Assembly (NCBI GenBank): GCA_902803375.1
Contig: CADCPN010000002.1
Location: 47,530-111,529, forward strand
Reading direction: 5' to 3'
Length of the DNA stretch: 64,000 nucleotides
From: an uncultured Erysipelotrichaceae bacterium
GTDB lineage: Bacteria > Bacillota_I > Bacilli_A > RFN20 > CAG-826
Under the pieces are notes generated by a model. That model had not been told where the DNA came from. It searched no databases and was given only the letters and a program-made list of their open reading frames with translations. Made by a program: the position numbers and the translations under genes. Positions 2,945 to 42,353 of this stretch are shown here, in pieces; the first letter of the stretch is position 1; every line of letters begins with the position of its first letter.

Positions 2945-5900
2945 CTACTGAGAGACCGTTAATTCGGTCTCTTTTCTTTTGCGTTTCACTTCCCCACGGA
3001 AAGAAACAAAGAGATAAGCAGAATAGCCCAGGATTCCAAAGATGCTTAGCAAGACGCCGGTCTTAAGCTTCGGGGTCTCGTAGACGAGATGATAGCTAAC
3101 CTTGCCCTTAGGCGCGACAAAACCGGTGAGGCCACCATCAAGGCGGAGCATCTGGCAATTCACCCTAGAGCCATCCTCTTTCTCAGCATAGGCATGCCAG
3201 CCCTCATCGTAGCCCATCTGGGTCTTAACGATGGTAGAGGCCTCGTATTCGGTGTGGAAAGAATAGCCATTGGTGATGGCTTTGACGTCTTTCAAAGCAG
3301 TGCTTCTTAAAAACGCCGCCTTCTCATCCATTTTAGCCTTCGGAACAATTGTGAATTGATAGTCGCTAGGATTCACAGAAGAGGTCGCGCCGGCGGAATA
3401 AGGCCAAATAAAAGCGATGGTTTTGACTTCTCCGGTGGCATAAAGGCCAATAGAGGAGCTTCTGCCTGCCCACCAGGCATTTAATCCAGCGGCAGCAACG
3501 TTGCCAAGGGTAGAGGCGTCGTAGCAAACGAGGCGGTCGTTGGCGTCGAACATCATGACCTTCGGCTGGGAATTGAAGCTGCTCTCGGTGATGTTGGTGT
3601 GATAAGTGAGCTGGAAATAGGCGCCATCTTCATCACAGAAAGAGGTGCCGTCATTTTTGGTGACAACGATATGATCGATGCCTTTCTTTGCGGTGGTGGC
3701 GGAGGTGAATTTGGCAGTGGCGCCATGGTGCTTGATGAAATAACCAGTGCCTTCAGAGCCATAGGGCTGGCCTTTATTCGGGAAGAGACGATCGCCTTCC
3801 ACAAGCGGCTCGTACTTATAGAAGCTCAAACCGCTGCTATAGGAAATTGTGGTAAGGCCAAAAGGATTGCCGCCGACCGTGGGGGCGGTAGCGTAGGCAA
3901 ACTCCTCAGGGAGAGTGACATCGTCATCGATGATGGCGCCGCTGACTAAGACCTCGTTCATGCGAAGGCTTTGTCTATGGGCATTATAGCTGCTTGGGGA
4001 GCGGGAGACCCAATCGGAAGAATAGGGGTTATCCTCATCGACGTTCATACGGTAAAGCATTGAGGGGTCAACGCCGTGTCCAAGGACGGGGAGATGATCT
4101 TCATCAACGCGATAGACGCGGTAGCGGTTGCGATCAGAGGAGGCTTCCTCGATTTCGCTCGCGCCGAAAGGAACGTTTTGGCCAACCCATTCATAGCGGT
4201 TGTCCCAATGGTTCTCCGTGACGTAGTAGCGATAGCCAAGGGCGACGTCCATGCCATATCTTCTATTGCGATAAGCGGCGCTCCAGCCATAGTTAACGAA
4301 GGTCTTCTCACCATAGGTGCCATCTTTCCCAGAATAGATAGAAGGCGGACACATCATGTAGTTCATGTATGCGAAATCCGTATCGGCATAGCTGATAAGA
4401 GAATGGAAGGAAGAAGAGCCAGCGGCGCCGGCAGCATATTGGAAGTTATTGGTGCCTTTGCCCTGGTCGAAATAGACGCGATAGTTAAGGTCACCCTGCT
4501 TCTTGATAGCCTCATTGGCGTAAACGGCAGAGGAGAGGTTCTCGCTTCCGCCCATGTAGGAGTTTTTGATCGACCACAGGCCATTGTAAAGGAAAGTCAT
4601 GTTTCCCATGACAATGGCCTCGACGGCAATGAAACCAAATAAGACGTGATCCAGCCACTTCCTGCGGTAGCCAATGACCATGATGACGCCTTCGACGCCA
4701 ACAAGGATCGCCTGGTAATAGAGATACCAATTCCTGGCTAAGCCGGAAATGGCTTCATCCGGCATGGAATAGCTAGTCGGATAATAGGTGACGTGGGTCA
4801 CGCCGCTGAAGGTCTTATCCTTCAACATCCAATAGATGCTGCAATAGGCAACGATGGTCAAGACGAGGGAAACAAGCGTGCCGGCAAAAGGAATCCAGCG
4901 CGGGCTGTCTTTGCGCTGGTCATAGGCCCAGCAGCCATAATAGACGATGGATGGAACCAAGACGAAATACCATCTGCCGTAGCCATTTCCGGAGAATGCG
5001 AAGAAGAAATAGTAGGCAAACGTCGTGAATAGGCAGAGCAAGCAGAAGAAAATGGCGACGATGTGGCTCCATTTCTTCTCTTTCAGAGAGAAGATGATGC
5101 CCTGGAAGAATAAAACAACGAAGGGCGTGTAGCAGAAAATACTGGCAGTCCAGGCATCATAGGTGGTGCCGGTGCTCTTAAGCAGTGGCAAAGCGGTGAA
5201 GCCGCCGGTCGGGAAGAAGAAAGAGATATAACCCATGATTTCGCGGCCTGGATTCTCGCCGACTTCGAGGAAGAAATAATAGAAGGCAGTTTTTAGGTCT
5301 CCCGCCTTTAGAGAGGATAGGAAAGCAGAAAGGTAGGCAGAGCCAATAGAGGTGGTACGACCAGTTAGGGAGCTCATGCGGAAGCTGGGCAGTAACACCC
5401 AAGCCCCAAGCAATAGCCCAAGGGCAAAGCCTCCTACGCCCAAAGAGATAACCTTAAAGTTATCAGCCTTATTCCTTTCCTTGATGGTGAGGAAATAGCG
5501 CCAAACGGCATAGATGACACCCCAGATGCAAATGGTAACGACGAGGAGGAAGCAAGAGAGCATCATCAAGAACAAGCCCCAAACGAGGCAGGAGATCTTC
5601 TTCTCCTTGATGGTCTTCTCAATACCCAAAAGAACAAGCGGAACATAGGTGAGGGCGCTGACGAACGTCGGGAAGCCCACCATGAAGTTCATGTAGCCGC
5701 TGAAGCCGATGGCAAGGGCGCCGAACCTGGCCGCGCCTTCGCTGATGCCGCGATAACGCAAAAACGCCTTCGCAAAGAAGACGGCCATCGTGATTTTGAT
5801 GATGGTCGAGAGGGCGAAAAGCTGGGGGACCCAGCTTCTTGGGAATAGCGACATCACGAGTGTGAAGGGATCAAACAGGCCATAGTATGCATTGGCGCCG

Positions 5901-6223
5901 ATATTGTCTTCGCCCAGGAAGGTAACCTCGCTCCAAAGCGGGAAGCTGCCCGTGGAGAAGAAAGTTCTCCACACGTCATGATAATGCTGTGCGAAAGGGA
6001 GGTACTGGTGGCTATAGTCCCAGTTCAAAGCCATGGAAAAAGAATTCTCGATTAAGCCATATCCGCACCAAGCAAAGCCGATGAGAACGACGACTAGACC
6101 GAAATAAAAATCGCTCTTCCAAGAGAAGAGGAAGGGGAAATGAAGTCTCCACCACGCATTGGTGAAGGCTTTTTCCTTTCTAAAGCTGCTAAGTCCTCTA
6201 TTCTCGCTAATTTGCCCGCTCAT
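2945..6223 (-). CDS. YfhO-family polytopic membrane protein, a putative glycosyltransferase/flippase-like teichoic-acid glycosylation protein. It has a large extracytoplasmic C-terminal domain.
   Basis: N-terminal block DYSHQYLPF..TGSFPLWSEVTFLGEDNIGANAYYGLFDPF matches the YfhO-family conserved pattern (aromatic-Q/H..GxFPLW..G.P..A). About 14 TM segments are followed by a ~600 aa soluble region. Length 1092 aa. Confidence 0.6.
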   Translation of the reverse strand: MSGQISENRGLSSFRKEKAFTNAWWRLHFPFLFSWKSDFYFGLVVVLIGFAWCGYGLIENSFSMALNWDYSHQYLPFAQHYHDVWRTFFSTGSFPLWSEVTFLGEDNIGANAYYGLFDPFTLVMSLFPRSWVPQLFALSTIIKITMAVFFAKAFLRYRGISEGAARFGALAIGFSGYMNFMVGFPTFVSALTYVPLVLLGIEKTIKEKKISCLVWGLFLMMLSCFLLVVTICIWGVIYAVWRYFLTIKERNKADNFKVISLGVGGFALGLLLGAWVLLPSFRMSSLTGRTTSIGSAYLSAFLSSLKAGDLKTAFYYFFLEVGENPGREIMGYISFFFPTGGFTALPLLKSTGTTYDAWTASIFCYTPFVVLFFQGIIFSLKEKKWSHIVAIFFCLLCLFTTFAYYFFFAFSGNGYGRWYFVLVPSIVYYGCWAYDQRKDSPRWIPFAGTLVSLVLTIVAYCSIYWMLKDKTFSGVTHVTYYPTSYSMPDEAISGLARNWYLYYQAILVGVEGVIMVIGYRRKWLDHVLFGFIAVEAIVMGNMTFLYNGLWSIKNSYMGGSENLSSAVYANEAIKKQGDLNYRVYFDQGKGTNNFQYAAGAAGSSSFHSLISYADTDFAYMNYMMCPPSIYSGKDGTYGEKTFVNYGWSAAYRNRRYGMDVALGYRYYVTENHWDNRYEWVGQNVPFGASEIEEASSDRNRYRVYRVDEDHLPVLGHGVDPSMLYRMNVDEDNPYSSDWVSRSPSSYNAHRQSLRMNEVLVSGAIIDDDVTLPEEFAYATAPTVGGNPFGLTTISYSSGLSFYKYEPLVEGDRLFPNKGQPYGSEGTGYFIKHHGATAKFTSATTAKKGIDHIVVTKNDGTSFCDEDGAYFQLTYHTNITESSFNSQPKVMMFDANDRLVCYDASTLGNVAAAGLNAWWAGRSSSIGLYATGEVKTIAFIWPYSAGATSSVNPSDYQFTIVPKAKMDEKAAFLRSTALKDVKAITNGYSFHTEYEASTIVKTQMGYDEGWHAYAEKEDGSRVNCQMLRLDGGLTGFVAPKGKVSYHLVYETPKLKTGVLLSIFGILGYSAYLFVSFRGEVKRKRKETELTVSQ
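2951..2982 (+). terminator. Rho-independent terminator for rsmI. It overlaps the last 8 codons of the convergent YfhO-like gene.
   Basis: gagagaccg-ttaattc-ggtctc stem-loop followed by TTTTCTTTT on the plus strand. Confidence 0.4.
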
Positions 6224-6585
6224 TCTTCGTCTGCTTTTTGCCCATCCGCAGAGGTTTCATTATCTTCCGGGTCGGGAGATTGCAAACCCACGGTGTCGCT
6301 AACGGGGATTGCAAAAGCGATTCCCTGTCCCTTCGTGTCCATTCCCGCGCCCTCATTCACGGCAAGGAGAACCTTATCGCGAATAGACCTCGGAACCAAA
6401 ATTATAACAATTTCCTTTTCAGGAGTAACGGCTACGCCGAAGAACTTTTCCACATCGGGACTGCCAGTGCCTCTAGCAGAGATAACGGTGCCGCCTCGAG
6501 CACCCGCTTGTCTAGCGGCGGTCATGACCAAATCCGTAAAGCCCCTGTTTACGATGCAGATAATGGATTCAAATGGTTCGTTCAT
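6220..6585 (-). CDS. PII-like (GlnB-fold) small signalling protein.
   Basis: 121 aa. Segment IVNRGFTDLVMTAARQAGARGGTVISARGTG resembles the PII-like proteins that accompany DUF1538 membrane proteins. ATGA overlaps with both neighbours. Confidence 0.55.
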   Translation of the reverse strand: MNEPFESIICIVNRGFTDLVMTAARQAGARGGTVISARGTGSPDVEKFFGVAVTPEKEIVIILVPRSIRDKVLLAVNEGAGMDTKGQGIAFAIPVSDTVGLQSPDPEDNETSADGQKADEE

Positions 6586-7004
6586 TGCTTTTTACCTCTG
6601 TGGAATAGACCTTTCTTCTCTTTTTTGGGTAGCGGCTTCTCAAAGAAGCGGTTATTGGAGAGCATCTTGTAGATCGATACCGCCATCACGGCCGTGATCT
6701 TCACGGAATAAGCAATTCCTTTCGCCATTTGCGAGACCGCGAACCTTTCTTCTAGAGTCTTCTTAACAATCGGCCAGCGGTCCTCGCGGATGATGGAATG
6801 AACCACCGTCTTTCTTCTATCGCCCGAGCCGGTGACTTCATAGAAATCATTGCTGGCCGTGCCACGGCCGTGGCTGAGGTAGCAGGCGTAGGCCTCATTG
6901 GCCTCAAAGATATCCGCGATCGATTCGCCCTGGCCCTCATTCACGATGACCGTAACGAAAAGCAAGGGGTGGATTCGATGGGTTCTGTCGTAATCTTTCG
7001 CCAT
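6582..7004 (-). CDS. Second PII-like protein, a paralogue of the downstream one.
   Basis: 140 aa. Segment VIVNEGQGESIADIFEANEAYACYLSHGRGTA is parallel to the motif in 6220..6585. A 1-nt overlap with the DUF1538 gene indicates translational coupling. Confidence 0.5.
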   Translation of the reverse strand: MAKDYDRTHRIHPLLFVTVIVNEGQGESIADIFEANEAYACYLSHGRGTASNDFYEVTGSGDRRKTVVHSIIREDRWPIVKKTLEERFAVSQMAKGIAYSVKITAVMAVSIYKMLSNNRFFEKPLPKKEKKGLFHRGKKQ

Positions 7005-8572
7005 TATGCCTCTGCCTCCTCTTCCATAAAGTGAATGACCTGCGCATCGTCTTCTTCCACAATACGCTTTCTCGCCTTAGCCAAGGCATTTGCTTTCTTG
7101 ATGCCCGAGACCAAACCCAGCGCCTGTAAGACAATCAACGGCATCATCGCCACCATAGCGACGAGGCCAAAGCCATATAGGTAAGGGTCGCTGCCCCTAG
7201 AGACCGCAAAGCCGATGCAGAAGGGCAAAACGAAAGTCGAGGTCATCGGACCTGAGGCGACGCCGCCGGAATCGAATGCCATTGCCGTATAGATCGGCGG
7301 GACGCAGAAGCTAAGGACAAACGCGAGGATATAGCCGGGAATCAGGTAATACATGATGTCGAATTCGAAATAGGAACGTACTAAGTGCAATGCGACGGCC
7401 GCGCCGATTGAAGCGGCCAGGATAGCCAAAACCGTGCCCTTTTTGATAGTGCCGTCGGTAATGTCTTGAATCTGCTGAACCAAGACATGGACAGCGGGTT
7501 CGGCTAAAACGCCGAATACGCCAAATAGGGAGCCAAGGATTAATGCGAACGGGAAGAACTTAGGGTCGCTACCAAAACTCATGCCCACCTTCTGCGCAAT
7601 CGGCATGAAGCCGTATTCGACCGCAGAGAGGAAGAGCACCAAGCCAAAATAGGTGTAGACCATGCCTAAAGTCACGCGGAGCACCATACGCCAAGAAAGG
7701 CGGATAAAAAGCAACTCGTAGACGATGAAGAACAGCAAAATGGGAACGACGCTCAAGGCGACGTTTTTAAGCGAATGAAGAAGGCCGTGGGCAATCATTT
7801 CGCCAAGCGAATCCGACGCCAAGGAAATGGAATAGGCATCGGGAAGGGCCTTGCCAGAGGCCTTCATGATACCGGCGATGATAATAACCGCGAGCACAGG
7901 CCCGACGGAGCAAAGCGCGGTAAGGCCAAATGCGTCTTCAGAGTTCTTCGAGCCATGGGTCGCAGCTAAGCCCAAGCCAAACCCCAACAGGAATGGAACG
8001 GTGACAGGGCCGGTGGTGACGCCGCCGGAATCGAAACAAATGGGCAGGAAGCGAGGATCGATCAAATACACCAGGGTGAAAGCCAAACCATAGAAGGCTA
8101 AGAACAAGGTGTTAAGGTTCATCTTGAAGAAGACACGGAGGACGCCAATTACCAAAAACGCGCCGACGCCGACGCCAATCGTCCAGACGATGACCTGTTC
8201 ATCGACGCCAATCTGCCCGGAAAGGACGGCCAAATCAGGTTCGGCAATCGTGACGAGGACGCCAAGGATGAAGGTCATGGCGATGACGAAGAAGAAATTT
8301 TTCTTCTTTACCAAAGAGCCGCCGATAAGCTCGCCGATCTCGGTCATTGATTGTTCAGTGCCTACGTTGAATAGGCCCATGCCCAGGATGATGGAGGCGA
8401 CGGAGATAAGAAAAGCCCAAAGCTCATTATTCGAGATGTAATACTGTTCCTTAAACGAGCCTTGGAGCCCATATTTTTGCACGAAAAAGAAGGCAAAAAT
8501 TAATACGGCAATCGGCGCAGTGCTAATGGCCGACTCCTTGAATTTAGTGAGCCAGTAATTAACTTTCGTCAT
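7004..8572 (-). CDS. DUF1538-family membrane protein with an internal duplication (two homologous halves).
   Basis: 522 aa and about 12 TM segments. The motif FDSGGVTTGPVTVPF in the first half recurs as FDSGGVASGPMTSTF in the second half. It is adjacent to two PII-like genes, a known but uncharacterised association. Confidence 0.55.
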   Translation of the reverse strand: MTKVNYWLTKFKESAISTAPIAVLIFAFFFVQKYGLQGSFKEQYYISNNELWAFLISVASIILGMGLFNVGTEQSMTEIGELIGGSLVKKKNFFFVIAMTFILGVLVTIAEPDLAVLSGQIGVDEQVIVWTIGVGVGAFLVIGVLRVFFKMNLNTLFLAFYGLAFTLVYLIDPRFLPICFDSGGVTTGPVTVPFLLGFGLGLAATHGSKNSEDAFGLTALCSVGPVLAVIIIAGIMKASGKALPDAYSISLASDSLGEMIAHGLLHSLKNVALSVVPILLFFIVYELLFIRLSWRMVLRVTLGMVYTYFGLVLFLSAVEYGFMPIAQKVGMSFGSDPKFFPFALILGSLFGVFGVLAEPAVHVLVQQIQDITDGTIKKGTVLAILAASIGAAVALHLVRSYFEFDIMYYLIPGYILAFVLSFCVPPIYTAMAFDSGGVASGPMTSTFVLPFCIGFAVSRGSDPYLYGFGLVAMVAMMPLIVLQALGLVSGIKKANALAKARKRIVEEDDAQVIHFMEEEAEA

Positions 8573-8587
8573 AATAGAAACAAGAAC

Positions 8588-9721
8588 TTATTTCTTCTTG
8601 CTTGCGGCACGAAGGGTGTAATGCGGTTTCGGAGCTCGCTTCTGTTGGGGTTTCTGCTCGCCGAAGCGGCGGGAAGCGGCGGCGCGCTGCTTGCCCTTCT
8701 TAATCTTGGTTTCGGCGCGGGTATCGCGCTCATTCTTTGCTTCGTGCTCCACCATCTTGGCTTTCTGCTTGGCAAACTTAGCATTGTCAGAGAAGACAAG
8801 CTTCTTAAATTCGATCGGCATCGGAGCGACAAAGTCATACTCCTTGCCATTTAGCGGATTGGTGAAGGTTAGCTTATAGGCGTGGAGGCCAAGGCGCTTT
8901 AACGGGTCAGTCGGCTCGCCATACTTGTCATCGCCAATGACGTAATGGCCAATATGGCCAAGCTGAACGCGGATCTGGTTCTTACGCCCGGATTCGATAT
9001 GGATATCAAGAAGGGTATAGGGGCCGCGTTCCTTAACGACTTTGTAGCTGGTGATCGCCAGTTTGCCCTTCGCCTTGTCTTTGGTGACGTAAACAAGCTG
9101 GAAATTATCCTGGGCAAGGTAGTCCTTCAACGTGTCGGAATCCTTTTCCATCTTGCCTTCAACGATCGCATAGTAAGCGCGGTCTTTGACGATGGACTGC
9201 CAAGAGTTCTGGAGGGCTTCGCGGGTCTGGTAGTTCTTGGCAAAGACGAGAACGCCGGAAGTATCTTCATCAAGACGGTGGACGACGAAGATTCTATCCT
9301 TCGGGCTCTTGGCCATGACATAATCGGAGACAAGACGATACGCGGTTCTTCCCTTCTCTCTTTCGGTTGCGACGGAAAGGAGGCCAGAGGGCTTATTGAT
9401 AACGATGAGGTCCTGATCTTCAAAGATGATCGGGAGGTCTTTGCGTTCATGCTTGGCGATGCGGTTCTTGGAGACCGTGACGACGTCTTCCGGATATAGC
9501 GGGGCATCGAATTGGCTGGTAGGAACGCCACCGACGGCGACTTGATGATGAGAAAGGAGGCTCTTAAGAGTCTTTCTCGGGGTATCCGGCATCTTGAAGG
9601 CGAGGAACTCTAGAAGAGTGGTCTCCTTATAGACTTCCCATTCCTTGATGGAATGAGGATCCACTAGGCCCTTTTCGCGCTTCTTCGCGGGTAATTTCGA
9701 TTTCTTATCGTTTTTGTTCAT
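8588..9721 (-). CDS. rluD: RluA-family 23S rRNA pseudouridine synthase (RluD-like) with an N-terminal S4 domain and Lys/Arg-rich terminal extensions.
   Basis: Catalytic motif HRLDEDTSGVLVFAKN. An S4-like segment lies before it. Basic tails are present at both ends (KKREKG..., ...KRAPKPHYTLRAASKKK). Confidence 0.8.
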   Translation of the reverse strand: MNKNDKKSKLPAKKREKGLVDPHSIKEWEVYKETTLLEFLAFKMPDTPRKTLKSLLSHHQVAVGGVPTSQFDAPLYPEDVVTVSKNRIAKHERKDLPIIFEDQDLIVINKPSGLLSVATEREKGRTAYRLVSDYVMAKSPKDRIFVVHRLDEDTSGVLVFAKNYQTREALQNSWQSIVKDRAYYAIVEGKMEKDSDTLKDYLAQDNFQLVYVTKDKAKGKLAITSYKVVKERGPYTLLDIHIESGRKNQIRVQLGHIGHYVIGDDKYGEPTDPLKRLGLHAYKLTFTNPLNGKEYDFVAPMPIEFKKLVFSDNAKFAKQKAKMVEHEAKNERDTRAETKIKKGKQRAAASRRFGEQKPQQKRAPKPHYTLRAASKKK

Positions 9722-9723
9722 GT

Positions 9724-10584
9724 TTATTCTCCGATGTATTTCTTTAGCTCCGGCAATAGCTTTATGGCGACGTCGTAGCCTTTTTGATAAAGGGCGTGGA
9801 GCTTTGCTTTATCCTTTTCCACCCTGCCGATTTCTACTTTCTCCTCAGGGGCGATGATGAAGACTTTCCCCTCCCTTTCCAAGCGGAAGAGCTCTTCCAT
9901 CTGACGGTTATAGAGGGCCTCGTATCCGTTGACGGCCTTCACGAATTCTGGGTAGCGATGGTACTTCCTCTTCGTGTAAAGGCGGTTGAGTTCCGTGCGC
10001 TTCTTCTTGCGGTAGCTGCGATCTCTTGTGAGCACGACAACCACTTTGCGGAAGCCATCTTCTATCGGCTTCTTAAAGGGCACAGAGGCAACGGGTCCGC
10101 CGTCCATATGCAGATGGCCTTCGACCTCAACGGGTTTGTTGATAATGGGCAGAGACGAGGAAGCGGCGAGCGCGGCCATGAAATCTGGCGTAACGCCCTT
10201 TTCAAAGTAATGGGCCTTGCCATCGTCCATGCCTGTGGTCGCGCAAAGGAAACGGGTCTTCGACTTATCGAATTCTTCTTGATTGAAGCTTCTAACGGAC
10301 TTTGGGACTTCATACATCAGGAAATCGAAATTGAAGAAATTGCCATCCTTGAGGTAGTTGTTCACGGAGGCAAACTCCTTCATCTGCATGCATTCTTCGA
10401 TGAGCCACGCGCCGCGGCCTTTGTCTTTGGCGAGGTAGTTGTAGGAAAGAAGAGCGCCGGCAGAGGTTCCAATAACATAGGGAAATTCGATGTTATTATC
10501 GATAAATGCGTCCAAAACTCCCGCGGCGAAAACGCCTCGAGTGCCACCGCCTTGTACCGATAATGCAATCTCTTCTCTTACCAT
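9724..10584 (-). CDS. Patatin-like phospholipase.
   Basis: Oxyanion hole GGGTRG and nucleophile elbow GTSAGA. The start is placed at the internal Met (MVREEIAL) rather than the ORF-track start at 10623, because the track start overlaps the divergent lipoprotein gene. Confidence 0.75.
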   Translation of the reverse strand: MVREEIALSVQGGGTRGVFAAGVLDAFIDNNIEFPYVIGTSAGALLSYNYLAKDKGRGAWLIEECMQMKEFASVNNYLKDGNFFNFDFLMYEVPKSVRSFNQEEFDKSKTRFLCATTGMDDGKAHYFEKGVTPDFMAALAASSSLPIINKPVEVEGHLHMDGGPVASVPFKKPIEDGFRKVVVVLTRDRSYRKKKRTELNRLYTKRKYHRYPEFVKAVNGYEALYNRQMEELFRLEREGKVFIIAPEEKVEIGRVEKDKAKLHALYQKGYDVAIKLLPELKKYIGE

Positions 10585-10610
10585 TGTCGATACAATGGTA
10601 CAATTTCCGC

Positions 10611-12206
10611 ATGCAACAACCAAAGAAAATCACCATAGTGCTAAGCGCAATTTTATTCCTCAGCGCTTGCGCCCCGGTCTCTCCGGCCGTTAGTTCGTCC
10701 TCTTCCGAGGGCAAATCTCCGTCCAGCGACACCTCTTCCCTTGAGGTCTCCTCAGTCTCCTCTGAAAGCTCATCCGCCAACAGAGAGAAGCATTCTGGCG
10801 TCTTCAAGTTCTACTGCGTCAATGACTTCCATGGATCTGTGTTGCCTGGATATGACGGCTATGGCCGCTTTGAATCTGGCATCAAGAAATACTTTGGAAA
10901 GCTCAAAGAGCTAAAGGACGCGGATCCTGAACATACAATCGTCCTCTCCGCAGGAGACATGTATCAGGGTTCCTTGGAATCCAACCTCAACTACGGCAAT
11001 CTCGTCACCGAGGCCATGAACGCCGTCCCCTTTGACGCCATGGCCATCGGCAATCACGAATGGGACTATGGCCAGCAGAGGCTAAAAGACAATATCGCCC
11101 TCGCCGATTTCCCGATGCTCGGCGGCAACGTCGTGAAATATGAAAACGGCGCAGCGACCACCACCCCTTGGTATGACGGCTTAGGCAAATCCACCATCAT
11201 CGAAAAAGCGGGCGTGAAGATCGGCATCGTCGGCATGATCGGCTATGGTCAAACCACTTCTATCATGTCCAAAGCAGTCGAAGATGTTTCCTTCGTTAAC
11301 CCTGAGCCCATCGCTCTTGCCGAAGCGCAACGTCTTAAGCAAGAAGAGGGATGTGAAATCACGATGCTCGTCATCCATGACGATGCAGACCAAGTGCTGG
11401 GCTGGGACGCTTATAGACAGCTAAACGCCTATTTCGACGGCGTCTTCTGCGGCCATAGCCACACTCGGAACAAGAAGATCAGCGATGGCGTCCCTCTCAT
11501 CCAGAGCTACTGCAACGGCCGCGCTTTCTCCCACATCGAAATCACCCTGACCGAAGGCCGGGCCAAAGCCAGCAACTACAATATCCAGACCGCAAGCGAA
11601 TCTTGGGAAGATAATTCCGCCATTGCCGCGGTTACCGACAAATATCTCGGCAAAGAAGACTACACGTCTCGCGCAAACGCCACTGCCGGCAACCTTACCG
11701 AGGCTATCGATAACAAAGGCGTCGCACGCTTAGGAGCCAGGGCAATCTACGAGAAATATCACGCTATATACCCTGATTTAGCATGCGCGATTGAAAATAA
11801 GCAAAGAGCAACTTTGCCAGCCGGCCCCGTCAAATATACCCAGCTCTACAAGTGCACTCCCTTCACCAATAACGTCATTATCATGAAAGCTCTCGGCAGC
11901 GAGATCAAAAGCGAAGGCGGCTACAACAACAACGTCGCATACGTCGGAGACCTATCCAAATACGGTTCTCTTGATGACGACAAGACCTACACCATCGCCG
12001 TCATCGATTACCTCGCTTACCATCAGGATGCCGAGAAGCGTTACAACTATTTCCCAGGCCTAGGGACTGGCGAAGACACCATAATCGAGGAATATGACGA
12101 CTATCCAATGGATATTTCCTTCGCTTATCTGGAGACCCTTGGAAACACCATTGATGCCTCTTTGTTCTCGGAGAGTGACCCTCATTTCACCGCCTATGCG
12201 AAATAA
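10611..12206 (+). CDS. Calcineurin-like metallophosphoesterase lipoprotein (5'-nucleotidase / 2',3'-cyclic-nucleotide phosphodiesterase family).
   Basis: Signal peptide with lipobox LSAC (MQQPKKITIVLSAILFLSACAP) and a Ser-rich linker. Motifs DFHG, GDMYQG and GNHEWDYG are present. The ORF-track start at 10506 is rejected because it overlaps the patatin gene. Confidence 0.7.
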   Translation: MQQPKKITIVLSAILFLSACAPVSPAVSSSSSEGKSPSSDTSSLEVSSVSSESSSANREKHSGVFKFYCVNDFHGSVLPGYDGYGRFESGIKKYFGKLKELKDADPEHTIVLSAGDMYQGSLESNLNYGNLVTEAMNAVPFDAMAIGNHEWDYGQQRLKDNIALADFPMLGGNVVKYENGAATTTPWYDGLGKSTIIEKAGVKIGIVGMIGYGQTTSIMSKAVEDVSFVNPEPIALAEAQRLKQEEGCEITMLVIHDDADQVLGWDAYRQLNAYFDGVFCGHSHTRNKKISDGVPLIQSYCNGRAFSHIEITLTEGRAKASNYNIQTASESWEDNSAIAAVTDKYLGKEDYTSRANATAGNLTEAIDNKGVARLGARAIYEKYHAIYPDLACAIENKQRATLPAGPVKYTQLYKCTPFTNNVIIMKALGSEIKSEGGYNNNVAYVGDLSKYGSLDDDKTYTIAVIDYLAYHQDAEKRYNYFPGLGTGEDTIIEEYDDYPMDISFAYLETLGNTIDASLFSESDPHFTAYAK

Positions 12207-19795: not shown

Positions 19796-22066
19796 CTACT
19801 TAATATCCTTAAGAGCCTGGTTGAGCTTATCTTCGGTGAAGAAGAGGCCTTTCTTCTGCTCTGGGGAAGCTTGCTTAAGCAACTCGAGCATATCGTTAAC
19901 GTCTTTCACCTTATTTTCGGCTTTGTAATTCGGGTTAGCGAGATTGGCACGGAGGACCTTATCGGTCTTGGCTAAGAGAGCGGAATCGACCGCTACGGCT
20001 TTCTTTTCCTTGGCGGGCTTTTTCTCCTCGGCCTTTTTCTTGGAGGCAGCCTTTTTGGCCGGGGCCTTTTTCTCCTCGGTCTTTGGGGCTTCTTCCTTAG
20101 CAGGCTTTTCCGCCTTAGCCGCTTTCGCGGTCTTGGTGGAAGTCTTCTTAGCGGAAGCCTTCTTGGTTGGCTTTTCCTCTTTGACTTTTACCGGCGCTTC
20201 TTCCTTCTTTGCCTTGGCCTTGGCTTTGGTTTTTGCCTTGGCTTTCTTCGGTTCAGGTTTGGCAGCGGCAACGTCTTTCTTTGCGGCAGACTTGGTAGCC
20301 TTCATAGCTTCGAAGCGAGCAGATCTTTCAATCTTGTCTTTCATCTCGGGTTCCGGGATCATCGCCACAAGAGTCGCACCTTGCGGAGTGGCAGTTCCAA
20401 CAACCTCGGTAATTGCCGGTTCAGAGGCTTTTTGCAAGGATTTTTGGTCTTTGGAAGACTTTCTGCGGGCATTTGCCTTCACGTTGGCAGCTTTCACGCT
20501 ATCGCGCTCACGCTGGACGAGGAGGGTCTGAGGAGTGGCCATGTTCGGAGCCTGTTCAGGCTTGGATTCCGGTTTGCCTTCGGGGTTGGATTCAGGCTTA
20601 GCGGCCTTCTTCTTTTTCTTCTTGGCGGGTTTGTCTTCTTCAACAGGAGCGGGAGAGAGTTCCGTTTTGGCTTCAGGGAGAGTTTCGACAGGCTTTTCGG
20701 CCGGTTTGGTCTCTTCGACTTTCTCTTCCACAGGCGCTTCTTCCTTCTTTGGGAGAGGTTTGGGCTCGCTCTTGGGTTTGGAAATAGTAACGACAGGGGT
20801 TTCAGAACTTATGGCTAGGTAAACGCGGTATCCGCCTTTACCCTTTTCGGCTTTGAAGCTATAGCCTTTCTTAGCAACGATCGCGACGTCTTCCTTCTCG
20901 AGGATGGAGGTTAGTTCCTCAAGGATGGATTTCTTGTCGGCGATAGTCGCATCGATCGGACCATGGACACCCGCGAAATACGGGACGGATGCATCACGGA
21001 ACATGACGCCATAATGGGCAGCGACCTGCTCTAATGCGTAGTCTAGGCCATGGCCGAAGCCATACCAAAGTTTTTTCGCTGGGGCGGCGGCCGGCGCCAA
21101 GAGGGTCGCAGGAGCGACTTCCTCTTTCTTCTCTTCGACCATCGAGGCAACAGGTTCTTCAACCTTTTTCGTCTCCACGGCCTTGGGAGCGGCCTCTTTC
21201 GGGGCCTCATCTTTCTGTTCAACCTTAGGCTGTTCTTTCTTCTGCACGGCCTTGGCGGGGGCAGCGACTAGTTTAGCGCGCTCCGCTTCAAGGGCAGGTA
21301 TGTCGTAATTTAGCTTCAAGCTAGCAAGGGCCTCGCCGGCATTGCGTAAAAGCGCAAGCTGGGCATCGATGTCCTTGATCTTTCTATTGACCAAATAATT
21401 GGAGTTGCCTAGGCTGGCGCGGAGACGGAAATCTCCGTTTTTGATCTCATCAAGAGTGGTGTCAGATTTCTTGATGTCTTTCTTCGCTCCGTTGTCATTG
21501 CGGGGAGCGTTCGCTTGCGAAGATAGCCTTTTATCTTCGTGGGAATTGTTCATTGGGCGACGATTTTCGCCTCTGTTGGGTATGAGATCACCATTGGTAA
21601 TGATCTTGAATACGGCAACGCGGTGGCCACGCTGAGAAGCTAATTCGTTTAGGTTTAGCAAATCAGTGGCTAACTTCTTGTCTTGAGTGATAACTAAGAT
21701 TTTGGAGTGCAGGCGGTCAGTCGAAACCCTTACATAAATCGCGTTATCTGCAAAATTCTCGTTTTTCTCTTTTAGAATTTTGATTGGTTTGTTCAGCCAA
21801 TGACGTCCTAGGATATGCAATGCGCGTTCAGCGGCAATTCGCTTATCCAAGTCCCCATCATTCTTAGAATGCTTGATCAATTCGTCTTCACATTGCTTGA
21901 GAATGTAAACGGGAACGCGGGGCTTGCAATACTTTTTGGCCCTTTCTAGAACATCCATCCACTCAGGGAAGTCCTCGTCCATCAATGAGCAAGTGTCCAC
22001 AAGAACATAGTTATAAGGTTGGATAACCTTAGCTAGGTCTGAGGCTTTTTTCTCATCTTTGTACAT
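19796..22066 (-). CDS. Mosaic protein with an N-terminal PIN-like nuclease domain, a central globular region, two copies of a ~30-aa repeat and a long Lys/Ala/Glu/Pro-rich histone-H1-like region.
   Basis: 756 aa. N-terminus YVLVDTCSLMDE...VITQDKKLATD has PIN-like acidic residues. Repeats are LRASLGNSNYLVNRKIKDIDAQLALLRNA and LRANLANPNYKAENKVKDVNDMLELLKQA. The tail contains KAKAKTKAKAKAKKEEAPVKVKEEKPTKKASAKK. Confidence 0.5.
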   Translation of the reverse strand: MYKDEKKASDLAKVIQPYNYVLVDTCSLMDEDFPEWMDVLERAKKYCKPRVPVYILKQCEDELIKHSKNDGDLDKRIAAERALHILGRHWLNKPIKILKEKNENFADNAIYVRVSTDRLHSKILVITQDKKLATDLLNLNELASQRGHRVAVFKIITNGDLIPNRGENRRPMNNSHEDKRLSSQANAPRNDNGAKKDIKKSDTTLDEIKNGDFRLRASLGNSNYLVNRKIKDIDAQLALLRNAGEALASLKLNYDIPALEAERAKLVAAPAKAVQKKEQPKVEQKDEAPKEAAPKAVETKKVEEPVASMVEEKKEEVAPATLLAPAAAPAKKLWYGFGHGLDYALEQVAAHYGVMFRDASVPYFAGVHGPIDATIADKKSILEELTSILEKEDVAIVAKKGYSFKAEKGKGGYRVYLAISSETPVVTISKPKSEPKPLPKKEEAPVEEKVEETKPAEKPVETLPEAKTELSPAPVEEDKPAKKKKKKAAKPESNPEGKPESKPEQAPNMATPQTLLVQRERDSVKAANVKANARRKSSKDQKSLQKASEPAITEVVGTATPQGATLVAMIPEPEMKDKIERSARFEAMKATKSAAKKDVAAAKPEPKKAKAKTKAKAKAKKEEAPVKVKEEKPTKKASAKKTSTKTAKAAKAEKPAKEEAPKTEEKKAPAKKAASKKKAEEKKPAKEKKAVAVDSALLAKTDKVLRANLANPNYKAENKVKDVNDMLELLKQASPEQKKGLFFTEDKLNQALKDIK

Positions 22067-22238: not shown

Positions 22239-24017
22239 TTATTTCTCTTTTTTCTCAGAAGCCTCTTCCTGCTGAAGTTTAGACTCCTGCGGAATGAGGC
22301 CTTTGGTGAAGAGAGGCTTGCCATCTTTCATCTCCTGGCCGTGTTCGTAGTAGATCACTCCTTCATCTATGAGCCTAGCTTCTTCGCGATAGGCGGCTAG
22401 TTCCTCGTCATTGCAGAGGATCCAGTGTCCCGGCAAGACTTCCTGGAAAGTCGGCTTCTGTTTGGAATAGTCGTGGGCGATGGCCGGGTTATAGATGATT
22501 CTCTGGCGGCGCTTCTCCGAGAGCGGGTTAGGCTGAGGGATGGCGGAGAGAAGAGACTTGGTATACGGATGCAGCGGATGCTTGAAGAGTTCATCCGAGG
22601 TGGTGAGCTCAACCATATCGCCGAAGTACATAACGCCGATGCGCTGGCAGAAATACTTAACGGTGGAGAGGTCGTGGGCGATGAAGATCATCGTTAGGCC
22701 CATCTCATCTTTAAGCTCGTTAAGGAGGTTGATGATCTGGGCACGGATAGAGACGTCGAGAGCGGAGATCGGCTCATCGCAGATGAGGAGCTTCGGATTC
22801 ATGATAAGCGCACGGGCGATGCCAATACGCTGTCTCTGGCCGCCAGAGAACTCATGCGGATAACGGGAAGCATGCTCTGGAACAAGGCCAACCTTCTCAA
22901 GGATTTCCACAGTCTTCCTGTGGTTCTCGGCACGATTATGATGGCCTTGGATTCGCAAGCCTTCCTGAATGATGTCCTCAACGGTCATACGAGGGTCGAG
23001 GGAGTCCACGGGATCCTGGAAAATCATCTGGATTTCGTTTAGGAGGGCACGCGGAGCGTGCTTATTATCGTAATGGATCTGACGGATCTTATCCTTTTGA
23101 TGTTCGACGACAAGGGCGTTTCTTTCCTTAAGGGCCTTGATCTGCTTGGCGTAATCCTCATGGATCGGCTTAGCCTGATCAGGAGTGAGGCCAGCAACCT
23201 TCTCAGCTTCCTCTTTCCTTAGCGCGGCGACCTTCTCCTTGCAGTGAATTCGGGAGTATTTGATCTCCTTGCGGTTCCATCTATCGCCGGCGCCGATGCG
23301 GTAACCTTTGAAATAAACAGAGCCAGAGGTGATGTCGTAGAGGTGGATGATGGAGCGACCGGTAGTGGATTTGCCACATCCAGACTCGCCGACAATGCCG
23401 AAGGTCTCTCCTTCATAGACGTCGAAGGAGACATTATGGACGGCTTTGAGCTTCACCTGGTTCGGCCAAGTGCCGAAGTGGAAGAACATACGCATGTGAC
23501 GAACGGCGAGGAGCTTATGGTCATCCACAAGCTTATGCTTATAGGTCAATTGCACGAGTTTGATGTCGAGTTGAGTCTTCTCGAGCTCTTCCTTTAAGGC
23601 TTTGAGCTCATCGTCGATCGGAGCGAGTTCTTTCGCCTTCTCTTCCTTCGAAAGGGAGGATAGAGATGCGGATTTCGATGCCCGCTCCTTCTTCTTTTCA
23701 GAGATTTTAGCTTTGAGGTCAGCCGCCTTTTTGTGGTTGGAGGCTAGACGCTGGCGCTTCTTCTCCTCCGCTTCCTTTTTGCGGGCGCGGTATTCAAGTT
23801 CGGGGATTTCGACGGACCCAGCATGATGCTGGGTTCTTTCATCCTCGTTCTCATCGCGAAGAATGTTGCCGCCACCGGTTTCGATGGAGGTGGCTTCTTC
23901 GAAGGCAGGGGAGTCGGCAGGATTGCCTTTGTTTAGCTTAGCGGCTTCCTCAGCCTTTTTTCTAGCGGAGGCGCCCTTGAGGTCACCTAGCGGCTTATTC
24001 ATGTTTTTATTTGGCAT
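22239..24017 (-). CDS. oppF: Oligopeptide ABC transporter ATP-binding protein OppF with a ~175-aa coiled-coil N-terminal extension and a ~150-aa insertion between Walker A and the signature motif.
   Basis: Walker A GESGCGKST. Signature FSGGQRQRIGIARAL. Walker B LLICDEP. The C-terminal oligopeptide-ABC domain is present. The insertion is Lys/Glu-rich. Confidence 0.8.
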   Translation of the reverse strand: MPNKNMNKPLGDLKGASARKKAEEAAKLNKGNPADSPAFEEATSIETGGGNILRDENEDERTQHHAGSVEIPELEYRARKKEAEEKKRQRLASNHKKAADLKAKISEKKKERASKSASLSSLSKEEKAKELAPIDDELKALKEELEKTQLDIKLVQLTYKHKLVDDHKLLAVRHMRMFFHFGTWPNQVKLKAVHNVSFDVYEGETFGIVGESGCGKSTTGRSIIHLYDITSGSVYFKGYRIGAGDRWNRKEIKYSRIHCKEKVAALRKEEAEKVAGLTPDQAKPIHEDYAKQIKALKERNALVVEHQKDKIRQIHYDNKHAPRALLNEIQMIFQDPVDSLDPRMTVEDIIQEGLRIQGHHNRAENHRKTVEILEKVGLVPEHASRYPHEFSGGQRQRIGIARALIMNPKLLICDEPISALDVSIRAQIINLLNELKDEMGLTMIFIAHDLSTVKYFCQRIGVMYFGDMVELTTSDELFKHPLHPYTKSLLSAIPQPNPLSEKRRQRIIYNPAIAHDYSKQKPTFQEVLPGHWILCNDEELAAYREEARLIDEGVIYYEHGQEMKDGKPLFTKGLIPQESKLQQEEASEKKEK

Positions 24018-25752
24018 AGCTAGATTCCTCCTCTAAGGCTTTCTTGATACGCTCGCTGACGATCTTCGGGGGCTCGACGTGCTCGGCTCCTGGGTATTCA
24101 AGCCAGGAAGCGACGAAGTGGGTCGGGGAGACCTGGAAGAACGGCGGCTGGTATTTGTAATCGATGCCGAGGGCGTATCTGTTTCTATCGGCAAAGGCAT
24201 CGCCGACCGGCGGATAGATCATATCCGGAGGGGTGCCGGGGATGGCCTCGAGCTTTTCCTTGGAATCAATGTCAGGGATGGACGAGAGCAAAGCCCAGGT
24301 ATAGGGGTGACGCGGATCGAAGAAGATCTCCTTATCCGTGCCGTATTCGCAGATCTTGCCAGCATACATGACGGCGACGCGGTCGGCCATGTTGGCGACG
24401 ACGCCGAGGTCGTGGGTGATGAAGATGACGGACATTTTACGCTCAGCCTTGAGCTTGTTGATAAGTTCAAGAATCTGGGCCTGGATGGTGACGTCAAGGG
24501 CGGTAGTCGGCTCATCACAGATGAGGATGTCCGGATTCGCGGTTAGGGCAATTGCGATGACGATACGTTGTCTCATGCCGCCGGAGAACTCGAACGGGTA
24601 CTGTTTGAAGCGGCGTTCCGCCTGCGGGATGCCAACCTCCTTCATAACCTTGATGGCGCGGCGTTTGGCCTCAGCCTTGGTGATGCGGATGGCATTCTGA
24701 TATTCGCGCTTGGCGGCGATGACTTCTTCGTTAGCAGTATCGAAGTCCTTGGTAAGGGCGGCGCGCTTCTCTAATAGCGGGGCAAGCACTTCCTTTTCCT
24801 TGGCAACGATGGCCTCCCTCCTCTTTCTTAGGAAATAGGTGAGGTAACGGCGGGTTTCATATACAAGTTTGGTCTTTTTGATTTCGGAATCGACCTTCTT
24901 GACCTTCTCCCAGTTAACGCCTGGGCGGATGGCTTCGCGCTTGGCGGTCGCGGCAGCAACCTTCTCATCGCGAACTTTCTGCAAGCCCTTTTTCCAGGCA
25001 GCGGTCTCGACCTTGGCTTCCTTTTTGCGAGCATCAAGGGCGGCCTTTAGGCCTGGAGCGACGCGCTTATACTCGGCTTTCGCCGCAGCGCTTCTCTCCT
25101 GGCATTCCTTCTTCTTGGCATTAAGGAGAGCCTTCGCCTCCGCTTTACGCGCGGCGATTTTCTCCTTATCGCCAGTGGCGATGATTTCATCGGTCTCCTT
25201 TTTTAGCTGGGAGGCGTAGTCGTTATATTGGTTTTCTGCGAGTCTAATCTCGGAATCGCGAGCAGCCGCAGCGTTCTTATAGGCAATAAGCTCTTTGGAG
25301 ATGAGCTCCTCGTAATGGTTCTTCTCCATGTTGGAGTTGATCAACATGGTCTCCGTGATCTGCTTGCCGATGCGAACGATTGGGTTGAGGGAGGAAAGAG
25401 GGTCCTGGAAGATCATGCCGATCTTTTTGCCGCGGATGCGGATGAACTCCTCTTCGGAGATCTGCAGGAGATCCTCTCCCTGATACATGATGGAGCCGCC
25501 TTCGATGAGGGCATTCTTGGAAAGGATGCCCATGATGGCTTTGGAGGTGACGGATTTGCCAGAGCCAGACTCTCCGACGATGCAGAGGGTCTCGCCGCGA
25601 TATAGGTCGAAGCTGACGCCGCGGACGGCCTGAACTTTGCCATTGTCGGTCCTGAAGGAGATCTTAAGGTTCTTGACCTCAAGGGCCTTTTCCTTTTTGG
25701 AAAGGTCATTTCCCTCTTCGATGATGTTTTTGTATTGTTCTTTGAAGTCCAT
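24007..25752 (-). CDS. oppD: Oligopeptide ABC transporter ATP-binding protein OppD with a ~230-aa coiled-coil insertion.
   Basis: Walker A GESGSGKSV. Signature FSGGMRQRIVIAIAL. Walker B ILICDEP. The insertion between the Q-loop and the signature is a heptad-like E/K/A-rich segment. Confidence 0.8.
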   Translation of the reverse strand: MDFKEQYKNIIEEGNDLSKKEKALEVKNLKISFRTDNGKVQAVRGVSFDLYRGETLCIVGESGSGKSVTSKAIMGILSKNALIEGGSIMYQGEDLLQISEEEFIRIRGKKIGMIFQDPLSSLNPIVRIGKQITETMLINSNMEKNHYEELISKELIAYKNAAAARDSEIRLAENQYNDYASQLKKETDEIIATGDKEKIAARKAEAKALLNAKKKECQERSAAAKAEYKRVAPGLKAALDARKKEAKVETAAWKKGLQKVRDEKVAAATAKREAIRPGVNWEKVKKVDSEIKKTKLVYETRRYLTYFLRKRREAIVAKEKEVLAPLLEKRAALTKDFDTANEEVIAAKREYQNAIRITKAEAKRRAIKVMKEVGIPQAERRFKQYPFEFSGGMRQRIVIAIALTANPDILICDEPTTALDVTIQAQILELINKLKAERKMSVIFITHDLGVVANMADRVAVMYAGKICEYGTDKEIFFDPRHPYTWALLSSIPDIDSKEKLEAIPGTPPDMIYPPVGDAFADRNRYALGIDYKYQPPFFQVSPTHFVASWLEYPGAEHVEPPKIVSERIKKALEEESSYAK

Positions 25753-25755
25753 GGT

Positions 25756-27726: not shown

Positions 27727-27728
27727 AA

Positions 27729-35334: not shown

Positions 35335-35846
35335 AAAATTTCTCCCTTTTATGTTTTTTGGAAAACAACAGTCTATATTGTCCTCATTTTTTGGGTTTCT
35401 TACAAGAAGCAGGAATTTTTTACTCTTTCTCACATATAAAAGAGGTGATAGGTGCATCGATTTTTGTGTGAAAGCATTTTTTCCTGCCGGGAAAGTGAGT
35501 GGTTTTTGTATAGATACGCGTCTGTTTGAGCAACGACCACGTTCGCCATGAATGGGAAGAAAAAAGCACAGCGAATCTCTCCGCCATGCTTGATTTCGGC
35601 TTTAGCCAGAAGGGGTGATATGATTCCTCTTAGTCAAGAGGTGGGCGTCCATGGTCAGCCATCAGGATTCCCAAGCGGTTAGGTTGGGCATTCAACACCG
35701 GCGTCTCCAGTCAGGACTCCCTAGATATCAAAATGTAGGGGAACAATGTTCCTTCTGGCCCACTAGAATTGCTTCTAGCAAGACCATTATATATCCCGAA
35801 CTTCTCCAATAGGGAAGGGGGAAGGCTAAGATGAAACAAATGCTTA

Positions 35847-42195: not shown

Positions 42196-42353
42196 TTTCT
42201 CCTCCTGTACGTTTATTGATATTGGTGTATTGTTATGTACACAGCTGTAATTGCTGCGTCATAACCATACACAACAAGACCGCATGGTCAACCAGCCAAG
42301 GGCTGAACATTATAACATGCTGTATAGTTATCAATATAGGAAGGAAATATTGT

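Follow-up and report, generated by a model that had tools for sequence, protein, structure and literature searches.

Few signal processors are as widespread as PII proteins, yet their understood membrane targets amount to a handful: AmtB, SbtA, and the ABC systems for nitrate and urea. In two of these cases, a PII or PII-like protein regulates the transporter with which it is co-encoded, as GlnK gates AmtB and SbtB gates SbtA. Here we describe a different arrangement, found in 64,000 nucleotides (nt) of DNA from an uncultured Erysipelotrichaceae bacterium (contig CADCPN010000002.1, positions 47,530 to 111,529; hereafter, the window). A gene for a membrane protein of the DUF1538 family is directly followed by genes for two PII-like proteins, which we call P140 and PII121 after their lengths in amino acids (aa), and then by a gene for a large YfhO-family protein. 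Computation established the gene structure, the protein folds, the topology bias of the membrane protein, how the cassette is conserved, and that YfhO is confined to one clade. The DUF1538, P140, and PII121 trio very probably constitutes one functional unit. Taken as a whole, the locus is best explained as an ion transporter cassette gated by a pair of PII proteins, with YfhO as a co-transcribed neighbor, an explanation that we hold with some, though far from complete, confidence.

The closest described relative of the membrane component is UmpAB of Halomonas zhaodongensis, a pair of DUF1538 proteins for which Na+(Li+, K+)/H+ antiport was measured in everted vesicles (PMC5484666). Both subunits are needed, they form a heterodimer, and seven transmembrane segments (TMS) are predicted for each; the pair works in Escherichia coli with only the two membrane genes expressed (PMC5484666). 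PII partners are not mentioned in that paper (0 occurrences), which is the only functional work on the DUF1538 family in the literature that we searched. A first reading of the window, made by a model from the letters alone (hereafter, the sequence-only reading), had called the association of PII-like with DUF1538 proteins functionally uncharacterized; as the UmpAB study shows, this is not wholly true of the DUF1538 family itself.

A two-repeat membrane protein of the DUF1538 family

The 522-aa protein matched the DUF1538 model (PF07556) twice, with a score of 367.9 bits (cutoff 22.6, E = 1.5e-110); one stretch, at residues 278-488, covers the full model, and another, in the N-terminal half, is the second copy. 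Aligned over 189 aa, the two halves share 30% identity (E = 5e-22), and both the FDSGGVTTGP and the FDSGGVASGP motifs fall within this alignment, confirming the internal duplication that the sequence-only reading had pointed out. In an AlphaFold2 (AF2) model with a predicted local distance difference test score (pLDDT) of 85.9 and a predicted template modeling score (pTM) of 0.85, each half consists of seven membrane-spanning elements, yielding 14 predicted helices in all. Two of the seven elements in each half are helix-break-helix segments, which carry the AEP(D/A) and FDSGGVxxGP motifs.

The topology was derived from the secondary-structure string of the AF2 model together with the charge bias of the loops. 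Across 56 homologues, in a 7+7 arrangement with both termini on the cytoplasmic side, the predicted cytoplasmic loops contained on average 14.8 lysine and arginine residues, compared to 1.8 in the external loops. This bias supports a 7+7 inverted repeat, as had been guessed from the duplication. Positions invariant across 81 homologues include E111-P-D113, F180-D181-x-G-G-V-T-T-G-P, A357-E358-P-A, F433-D434-x-G-G-V-x-S-G-P, and R399. A search of the PDB gave no sequence match for the protein, and its membrane fold is novel, without a solved relative.

We also compared the two halves with the NCBIfam models of the UmpAB subunits (NF041627 and NF041628). The C-terminal half matched UmpA with 133 bits (cutoff 490) and the N-terminal half matched UmpB with 97 bits (cutoff 500). 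Judged by these scores, the protein is a member of the family and not an equivalog of UmpA or UmpB. The same protein is present at 100% identity on many metagenome contigs, and its closest named relatives come from metagenome-assembled genomes (MAGs) labeled Bacilli or “Candidatus Enteromonas”.

Two diverged PII-like proteins

The shorter of the two small proteins, PII121, is recognized directly by the Pfam family P-II (PF00543; Table 1). The best PDB match of its family profile is 9p1x_H (E = 8e-7), the P-II chain of a methanogen nitrogenase supercomplex (bioRxiv 10.1101/2025.09.09.675011), followed by GlnK and GlnB. P140, on the other hand, has no Pfam match, even at an E value of 10. We compared the two proteins through family alignments built from related loci, one of P140-type and one of PII121-type sequences (A2 and A3, 46 sequences each). 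The two profiles aligned with each other over 99 columns (hhalign, 98.4% probability, E = 9e-15).

An AF2 model of P140, based on an alignment of 63 sequences (pLDDT 78), agreed with this relationship. Its strands (E) and helices (H) follow the order E14-22, H26-35, E40-47, a loop, E64-73, H74-90, and E96-102, i.e., a ferredoxin-like beta-alpha-beta-beta-alpha-beta core with a 16-residue loop between beta2 and beta3, at the position of the T-loop. A C-terminal helix beyond the PII core and a basic tail are additional features. The top Foldseek matches of the model were TTHA0516, SbtB, CPII, and GlnK1 (E about 1e-4, probability 1.0). In addition, a few members of the P140 family carry precomputed PF00543 matches, and both halves of a 222-aa fused homologue match P-II. 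By profile and by model, then, P140 is a diverged PII paralogue. The early suggestion of two divergent PII-like paralogues was borne out, by Pfam for PII121 and by hhalign, AF2, and Foldseek for P140, and neither protein was assigned to a non-PII fold.

The two families have a common signature, comprising (A/G)RGT(A/G) after beta2, an invariant lysine at the K58 position, and a B-loop of the form G-x-G-I-A-F/Y. PII121 conserves R38, K57 (the K58 equivalent), and the GxG of the B-loop, which reads G86-Q-G88-I89-A-F; here I89 is invariant and replaces the canonical lysine (K90). The arginines after beta4 (canonical R101/R103) are absent from PII121. Both the lysine of the B-loop GDGK and the C-terminal arginines have established roles in the ATP site of PII proteins. 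The PII fold and part of the nucleotide cleft are kept, while classical ATP co-ordination is not guaranteed.

To estimate the extent of the P140 family, we searched a library of 1.84 billion proteins. The family has 1491 representatives there at E<=1e-10; counted as clusters at 90% identity, it has at least 1456 members. About 30 of the 150 best representatives are tandem P140-PII fusions of 220-286 aa. The paralogues also differ in charge: the mean net charge is +4.9 for the P140 family (83% of members positive) versus -3.8 for the PII121 family (87% negative). A pairing between the C-terminal tail of DUF1538, if acidic, and the basic tail of P140 was rejected as a general basis for docking, as the DUF1538 tail is acidic only in the window's clade and not family-wide.

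A conserved and transferable cassette

To examine how far the arrangement is conserved, we scanned one genome per GTDB species using a DUF1538 alignment as the query and retained the best 80 of more than 600 matches. These loci, at 39-65% identity, were mostly from Clostridia, with some from Bacilli. In all 79 loci analyzed by tblastn, open reading frame (ORF) calling, and profile hidden Markov models (HMMs), the order was DUF1538, a P140-like domain, and a PII121-like domain. The two PII-like domains were encoded by separate ORFs in 64 of these loci and shared one ORF in the remaining 15, most of which are true tandem fusions of 210-285 aa. The sequence-only reading had remarked on the two divergent PII-like paralogues at this locus; they are not special to it but the rule for the fused Firmicute type, and the window's cassette is a typical member of its class.

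The cassette is also found on mobile replicons. Clostridial replicons annotated as plasmids carry the fused DUF1538 gene together with a 222-224-aa “P-II family nitrogen regulator”. Alphaproteobacterial plasmids, two of which represent the proteobacterial split type in our sample, carry two separate DUF1538 genes and a single P-II gene of 112-122 aa. Outside the window's clade, no further downstream neighbor recurs: when the genes downstream of the cassette in 58 loci were clustered by BLAST and assigned to Pfam, 76 families emerged, none of them in more than three loci. Because no other neighbor recurs there, DUF1538, P140, and PII121 form an autonomous, transferable cassette. We further scanned the upstream regions of 17 loci with long gaps against Rfam and found no riboswitch or leader RNA that could serve as a clue to the substrate; the only matches were unrelated ones to signal recognition particle (SRP) RNA, T-box, lysine riboswitch, transfer RNA, and ribosomal RNA.

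The survey of gene neighborhoods thus established co-occurrence of DUF1538 and PII in 79 of 79 loci. The sequence-only reading had called this association a recognized one. Its conservation is indeed strong, but no paper describing it was found in the literature searched; the annotation pipeline of NCBI already labels the PII neighbors of the cassette as “P-II family nitrogen regulator”.

Several individual loci showed additional features. On the Methylocystis rosea plasmid pGW6_2 (L089), the DUF1538, DUF1538, and P-II trio occupies positions 4270-6061 between IS66 transposase sets, placed like the cargo of a composite transposon. A similar trio on a Chelativorans plasmid (L090) lies near a P-type ATPase and a heavy-metal-associated gene. 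A Candidatus Scatosoma locus (L056) apparently encodes two DUF1538 proteins, one on the plus strand (7665-9164) and one on the minus strand (12366-10867), the latter accompanied by its own P140-like and PII-like genes. Finally, the only ion-transport neighbor seen near any cassette is an MgtE-type Mg2+ transporter gene directly upstream of RluA-DUF1538 (L015:6482-7939).

YfhO occupies the slot behind the cassette in a single clade

The gene that follows the cassette in the window encodes a polytopic protein. Its hydropathy profile shows about nine hydrophobic segments between residues 40 and 545, about 510 aa of extracytoplasmic sequence, and a transmembrane segment near the C-terminus, at 1057-1075. 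A D69-Y70-x-x-Q73 motif after the first transmembrane segment is invariant in 11 orthologues. C-type glycosyltransferases (GT-C) typically conserve an acidic residue, the catalytic aspartate, in their first extracytoplasmic loop, and the aspartate of the DY..Q motif may be its counterpart. The protein is a putative GT-C-type envelope glycosyltransferase of the YfhO family (PF09586). It is not an equivalog of PgfM2 (20 bits with the NCBIfam model, cutoff 1500), and it has no match in the PDB by sequence. No GT2/CsbB-like partner was detected among the ORFs of at least 200 aa in the window; the GT2 and GtrA/GtcA-like partner genes of YfhO are often unlinked.

The sequence-only reading had proposed that a PII sensor jointly controls the DUF1538 permease and YfhO. 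This proposal found no support in the distribution of the gene. YfhO follows the cassette only in L001-L014, the window's own clade, and no YfhO homologue lies within 9 kb in the other 74 of 88 loci (L015-L088). The expected co-occurrence in relatives hence stands for DUF1538 and the PII proteins and does not extend, for YfhO, beyond its own clade. The same 14 loci also share the patatin and RluA genes upstream, as well as rsmI-PSP1-holB-tmk-recR downstream on the other strand. Since the flanking region is syntenic throughout the YfhO clade, the adjacency of YfhO is confounded with the shared ancestry and general synteny of one lineage. Within this lineage, identities fall to 43% for DUF1538, 29-44% for YfhO, and 47% for RsmI. 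In 10 of the 11 distinct loci of the clade, the PII and YfhO genes overlap or lie no more than 25 nt apart; the eleventh has a gap of 82 nt. Co-transcription of the two genes is therefore likely throughout the clade. Lineage-specific operon packing is the simplest explanation of this coupling.

A different gene occupies the same slot in a sister lineage. In L015, a more distant Bacilli MAG in which RluA is still upstream, a gene for a 439-aa GT87-like polytopic protein (L015:11250-12569; PF09594, 37.9 bits) overlaps the PII stop codon by 11 nt. Three gut-metagenome contigs (L093-L095, at about 5944-7293) contain GT87-like genes at 55% identity, with RluA-DUF1538-P140-PII directly upstream. These proteins, 439-450 aa in length, thus reside in the slot taken by YfhO in the clade of the window. 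A further 37 GT87-like homologues, all more distant, have no cassette upstream. The presence of two unrelated glycosyltransferase-like genes in one slot is suggestive, and it concerns only two lineages, both within one RluA-linked clade. We examined whether the GT87-like gene of L015 could be a truncated YfhO, and neither BLASTP nor hhalign showed any similarity. Likewise, a 1059-aa ORF in L040, considered as an inverted YfhO, had no HMM match and looks like a secreted protein.

Proposed mechanism and alternative explanations

We propose that the DUF1538 protein acts as a secondary ion transporter and, judged by its family, as a cation/proton antiporter like UmpAB, in which the invariant acidic residues at two helix-break pairs (E111/D113 with D181, and E358 with D434) would provide the ion sites. 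Exchange of Na+, K+, or Li+ against H+ is a tentative assignment of its substrate that may well prove wrong. P140 and PII121 would assemble into a hetero-oligomer, which we propose because of their 1:1 gene dosage, their opposite net charge, and their frequent natural fusion. This hetero-oligomer would dock on the cytoplasmic face of the DUF1538 protein and open or block it depending on a small molecule; an adenine nucleotide or a second messenger is the most plausible signal. The substrate, the hetero-oligomer, the docking, and the ligand are thus the parts of this scheme that we infer. UmpAB is active in E. coli without PII genes, which would be expected if the PII proteins regulate the transporter and are not essential to it.

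Several observations weigh against this scheme. Contact between the PII proteins and DUF1538 is presumed, and none of the top 150 P140-family representatives is a DUF1538-PII fusion, which would have served as a Rosetta-stone indication of such contact. PII121 has lost the canonical B-loop lysine and the C-terminal arginines, such that classical ATP binding is not assured. The UmpA and UmpB scores lie far under the equivalog cutoffs, cation/proton antiport is a family-level guess from one heterologous-expression study, and neither a riboswitch nor a recurrent neighbor, as seen in the Rfam scans and the neighbor census, hints at the substrate. As for YfhO, the tight PII-YfhO junction in 10 of 11 clade loci counts against its being a mere neighbor, as does the unrelated GT87-like gene for a membrane glycosyltransferase-like protein that overlaps the PII stop codon in the sister lineage.

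The cargo of the transporter could also be of another kind. Under the control of the PII pair, DUF1538 might let through a carbon or nitrogen species such as bicarbonate/CO2, ammonium, or an organic anion, as a transporter or as a channel, in parallel with SbtB-SbtA (bioRxiv 10.1101/2021.02.14.431189), CPII-DAB, and GlnK-AmtB, and the Na+/H+ exchange of UmpAB would then be a side activity seen in sensitized E. coli. To our knowledge, all well-understood PII-transporter pairs handle nitrogen or carbon species, which speaks for such cargo. So do the carbon-regulatory proteins SbtB and CPII among the best structural matches of the P140 model, the nitrogen-system PIIs that head the sequence matches of the PII121 profile (the nitrogenase-associated P-II chain, then GlnK), and the distance of the window's DUF1538 protein from the UmpAB equivalog thresholds. 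However, the invariant membrane residues are acidic (E111, D113, D181, E358, and D434), with R399 as the single invariant arginine, a composition that suits cations better, and no carbon- or nitrogen-metabolism genes recur beside the cassette. With cation/proton antiport as the family's only experimental datum (PMC5484666), we regard a carbon or nitrogen substrate as unlikely. The antiport activity of UmpAB in everted vesicles (PMC5484666) similarly disfavors a role for DUF1538 as a membrane sensor, scaffold, or enzyme, with the PII pair as its output or structural subunit rather than its gate. The absence of a sequence match in the PDB would be compatible with such a role, but an inverted repeat with broken helices that carry invariant polar or acidic motifs is typical of secondary transporters and channels, and we find the sensor, scaffold, or enzyme role very improbable.

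A broader alternative joins all four genes, DUF1538, the two PIIs, and YfhO, into one module, in which a PII-type sensor would coordinate the permease with envelope glycosylation. DUF1538 might provide or flip the lipid-linked sugar on which the GT-C enzyme draws, or ion homeostasis might be co-regulated with the decoration of teichoic acids or glycolipids. In line with this idea, PII121 and yfhO overlap by an ATGA in the window, the PII-YfhO junction stays tight in 10 of 11 clade loci with YfhO identities down to 34-36%, and the GT87-like protein of L015 and L093-L095 looks like a non-orthologous replacement in a conserved slot. Moreover, YfhO-type systems require a lipid-linked sugar flippase, according to two studies (PMC7389260, PMC8035078). 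Yet 74 of the 88 loci carry the cassette without YfhO within 9 kb and with unrelated neighbors, and the cassettes of alphaproteobacterial plasmids stand alone between insertion sequence (IS) elements. Within the YfhO clade, synteny extends over the whole region, which confounds adjacency with shared ancestry, and the same logic of translational coupling would also link the RluA pseudouridine synthase and the patatin lipase to the module. The more distant GT87-like homologues without a cassette and the lack of a GT2/CsbB-like partner among the larger ORFs of the window point in the same direction, and we deem the four-gene module quite improbable. We are equally doubtful that YfhO is mechanistically part of the cassette. 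It also seems rather implausible that a clade of reduced-genome gut Bacilli wired the cassette to GT-C-type glycosyltransferases that use lipid-linked sugars, namely YfhO or, in the sister sub-lineage, the GT87-like protein. If this wiring were true, membrane transport and the glycosylation of an envelope polymer would be coordinated directly by a PII-type signal, metabolic or ionic, and DUF1538 could act in glycosylation as a carrier-lipid-sugar flippase or as a counter-ion transporter. Overall, the link between the cassette and envelope glycosylation is weak, and the best reading of YfhO is that of a co-transcribed neighbor, placed there by lineage-specific gene order and not part of the machine.

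Gene array and other features of the window

The four minus-strand ORFs reported by the sequence-only reading, with overlaps of 1-4 nt, were confirmed in both coordinates and junctions (Table 1). The junction sequences are TAATG between DUF1538 and P140, ATGA between P140 and PII121, and ATGA between PII121 and yfhO, corresponding to overlaps of 1, 4, and 4 nt. The array as first delimited, from the DUF1538 start onward, did hold as a run of four overlapping genes; the tight packing, however, does not end there. As it continues upstream on the same strand through the RluA and patatin genes, the transcription unit likely comprises six genes: patatin, RluA, DUF1538, P140, PII121, and YfhO. The whole array recurs, identical or near-identical, on independent metagenome contigs.

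Table 1 Features of the six-gene array and its downstream boundary, in window coordinates
Feature	Coordinates	Strand	Evidence
Patatin-like phospholipase with DUF6363 C-terminal domain	9724..10584	-	Pfam Patatin 69.8 bits, DUF6363 76.2 bits
RluA-family pseudouridine synthase	8588-9721	-	Pfam PseudoU_synth_2 109 bits; TIGR00005 185 bits (cutoff 192.7, just missed)
Fused two-repeat DUF1538 membrane protein, 522 aa	7004..8572	-	Pfam DUF1538 x2
P140, diverged basic PII-like paralogue, 140 aa	6582..7004	-	Profile-profile match, AF2 model, Foldseek
PII121, acidic PII-family protein, 121 aa	6220..6585	-	Pfam P-II 32.8 bits (cutoff 25)
YfhO-family polytopic membrane protein, 1092 aa	2945..6223	-	Pfam YfhO 116.1 bits (cutoff 28.5), 3 stretches
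GC-rich hairpin, candidate bidirectional terminator	2950..2973		9 pairs, then T-run on + strand; consensus match only

The patatin gene is the first of the packed array, and it is syntenic within the window's clade. Its start is probably the ATG at 10584, as a 286-aa protein is called on identical contigs, although the mechanical ORF opens at a TTG at 10623; its stop codon lies 2 nt ahead of the RluA start. Between the end of the RluA gene and the DUF1538 start lie 15 nt in which no Shine-Dalgarno sequence is obvious; in four relatives (L004, L009, L010, and L012), the RluA gene overlaps the DUF1538 start. On one side, the array is limited by a divergent 5'-nucleotidase-like gene (at about 10611) and on the other by the convergent rsmI gene, which ends at 2920. 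The candidate terminator hairpin is located in the 24-nt convergent junction with rsmI, overlapping the last yfhO codons.

The divergent starts of the patatin gene (minus strand) and the 5'-nucleotidase-like gene (plus strand), at 10584-10611, are only about 26 nt apart, and therefore both promoters must lie inside the opposing coding regions. The sole promoter-like match near these starts is on the plus strand, at 10472-10499. A consensus scan of the region for promoters gave 4 matches versus 6.4 in shuffled controls, i.e., no enrichment, and the promoter and terminator scans found nothing convincing between the genes of the array. A single sigma-70-like match (9/12) at 6286-6259, considered as an internal yfhO promoter, was not taken as evidence, given that the region scores below the shuffled controls.

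Other genes in the window also show unusual features. The PSP1 (RicT/YaaT-like) protein encoded at 795-2060 on the plus strand is 421 aa long, compared to 283-339 aa in relatives; its additional C-terminus of about 130 aa is a low-complexity Arg/Asn/Asp/Gly/Gln tail that ends in the His-rich run GGHHHNHGHN. The components of an Opp-type ABC transporter at 22239-28766 (minus strand) are unusually long: its ATPases measure 592 and 581 aa, and its OppC-like permease measures 656 aa. Large ORFs without a Pfam match lie on both sides of it (756 aa at 19796-22066 and 876 aa at 28928-31558) and are possibly very divergent substrate-binding lipoproteins. At 35847-42195 (minus strand), a 1328-aa ORF without a Pfam match overlaps the start of a gene for a 791-aa MMPL-family transporter, and a divergent TetR-like regulator (42216-42947) adjoins this pair. 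Lastly, a 575-aa protein at 33730-35457 (minus strand), large for a DUF1508 protein, has a mid-protein DUF1508 repeat as its only Pfam match (99.5 bits).

Comparison with known systems

To the PII proteins, the cassette adds a PII-like subfamily with thousands of members, a pairing of basic and acidic paralogues that is often a tandem fusion, and a dedicated membrane partner with a fold that has no solved relative, from a family whose function rests on one paper. With only three genes, an abundance in the Clostridia and Bacilli of the gut, and mobility on plasmids of proteobacteria, it is tractable for the study of new PII ligand and target logic and of a new transporter fold.

The cassette resembles the methanogen nitrogenase regulators NifI1 and NifI2 in having two adjacent PII paralogues, and the best PDB match of the PII121 profile, 9p1x_H, comes from that system. 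NifI1 and NifI2 act together on nitrogenase and show hetero-oligomeric behavior. Their target is nitrogenase, whereas that of the cassette would be a membrane protein. With UmpAB, the window's protein shares its Pfam family, and both systems would employ two homologous seven-TMS units acting together; UmpAB consists of two polypeptides, whereas the units of the window are fused in one 522-aa chain. The window's YfhO is similar to the YfhO/CsbB/GtcA three-component glycosylation systems of Gram-positive bacteria (PMC5836110, PMC7389260, PMC8035078) in combining a polytopic N-terminal domain with a large extracytoplasmic domain. It differs from them in that no CsbB-like GT2 was found among the larger ORFs of the window, exceeds the 835 positions of the Pfam model by about 230 aa, and, with respect to PgfM1/PgfM2 of Streptococcus mutans, is not the PgfM2 equivalog.

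The cassette also resembles GlnK-AmtB and SbtB-SbtA in gene organization. In all of them, a PII-fold gene lies immediately downstream of a polytopic transporter gene and is co-transcribed with it; the pairing found in the window is conserved across phyla, and the P140 model matches SbtB and GlnK1. There are differences as well: the cassette encodes two paralogues of opposite charge, often fused, rather than one homotrimeric PII; DUF1538 is unrelated to Amt or SbtA; and the cassette PIIs carry an invariant isoleucine in place of the B-loop lysine. The cassette is thus distinct from the known PII-transporter pairs in its unsolved membrane fold, in its paired or fused PII proteins, and in the loss of part of the canonical ATP site.

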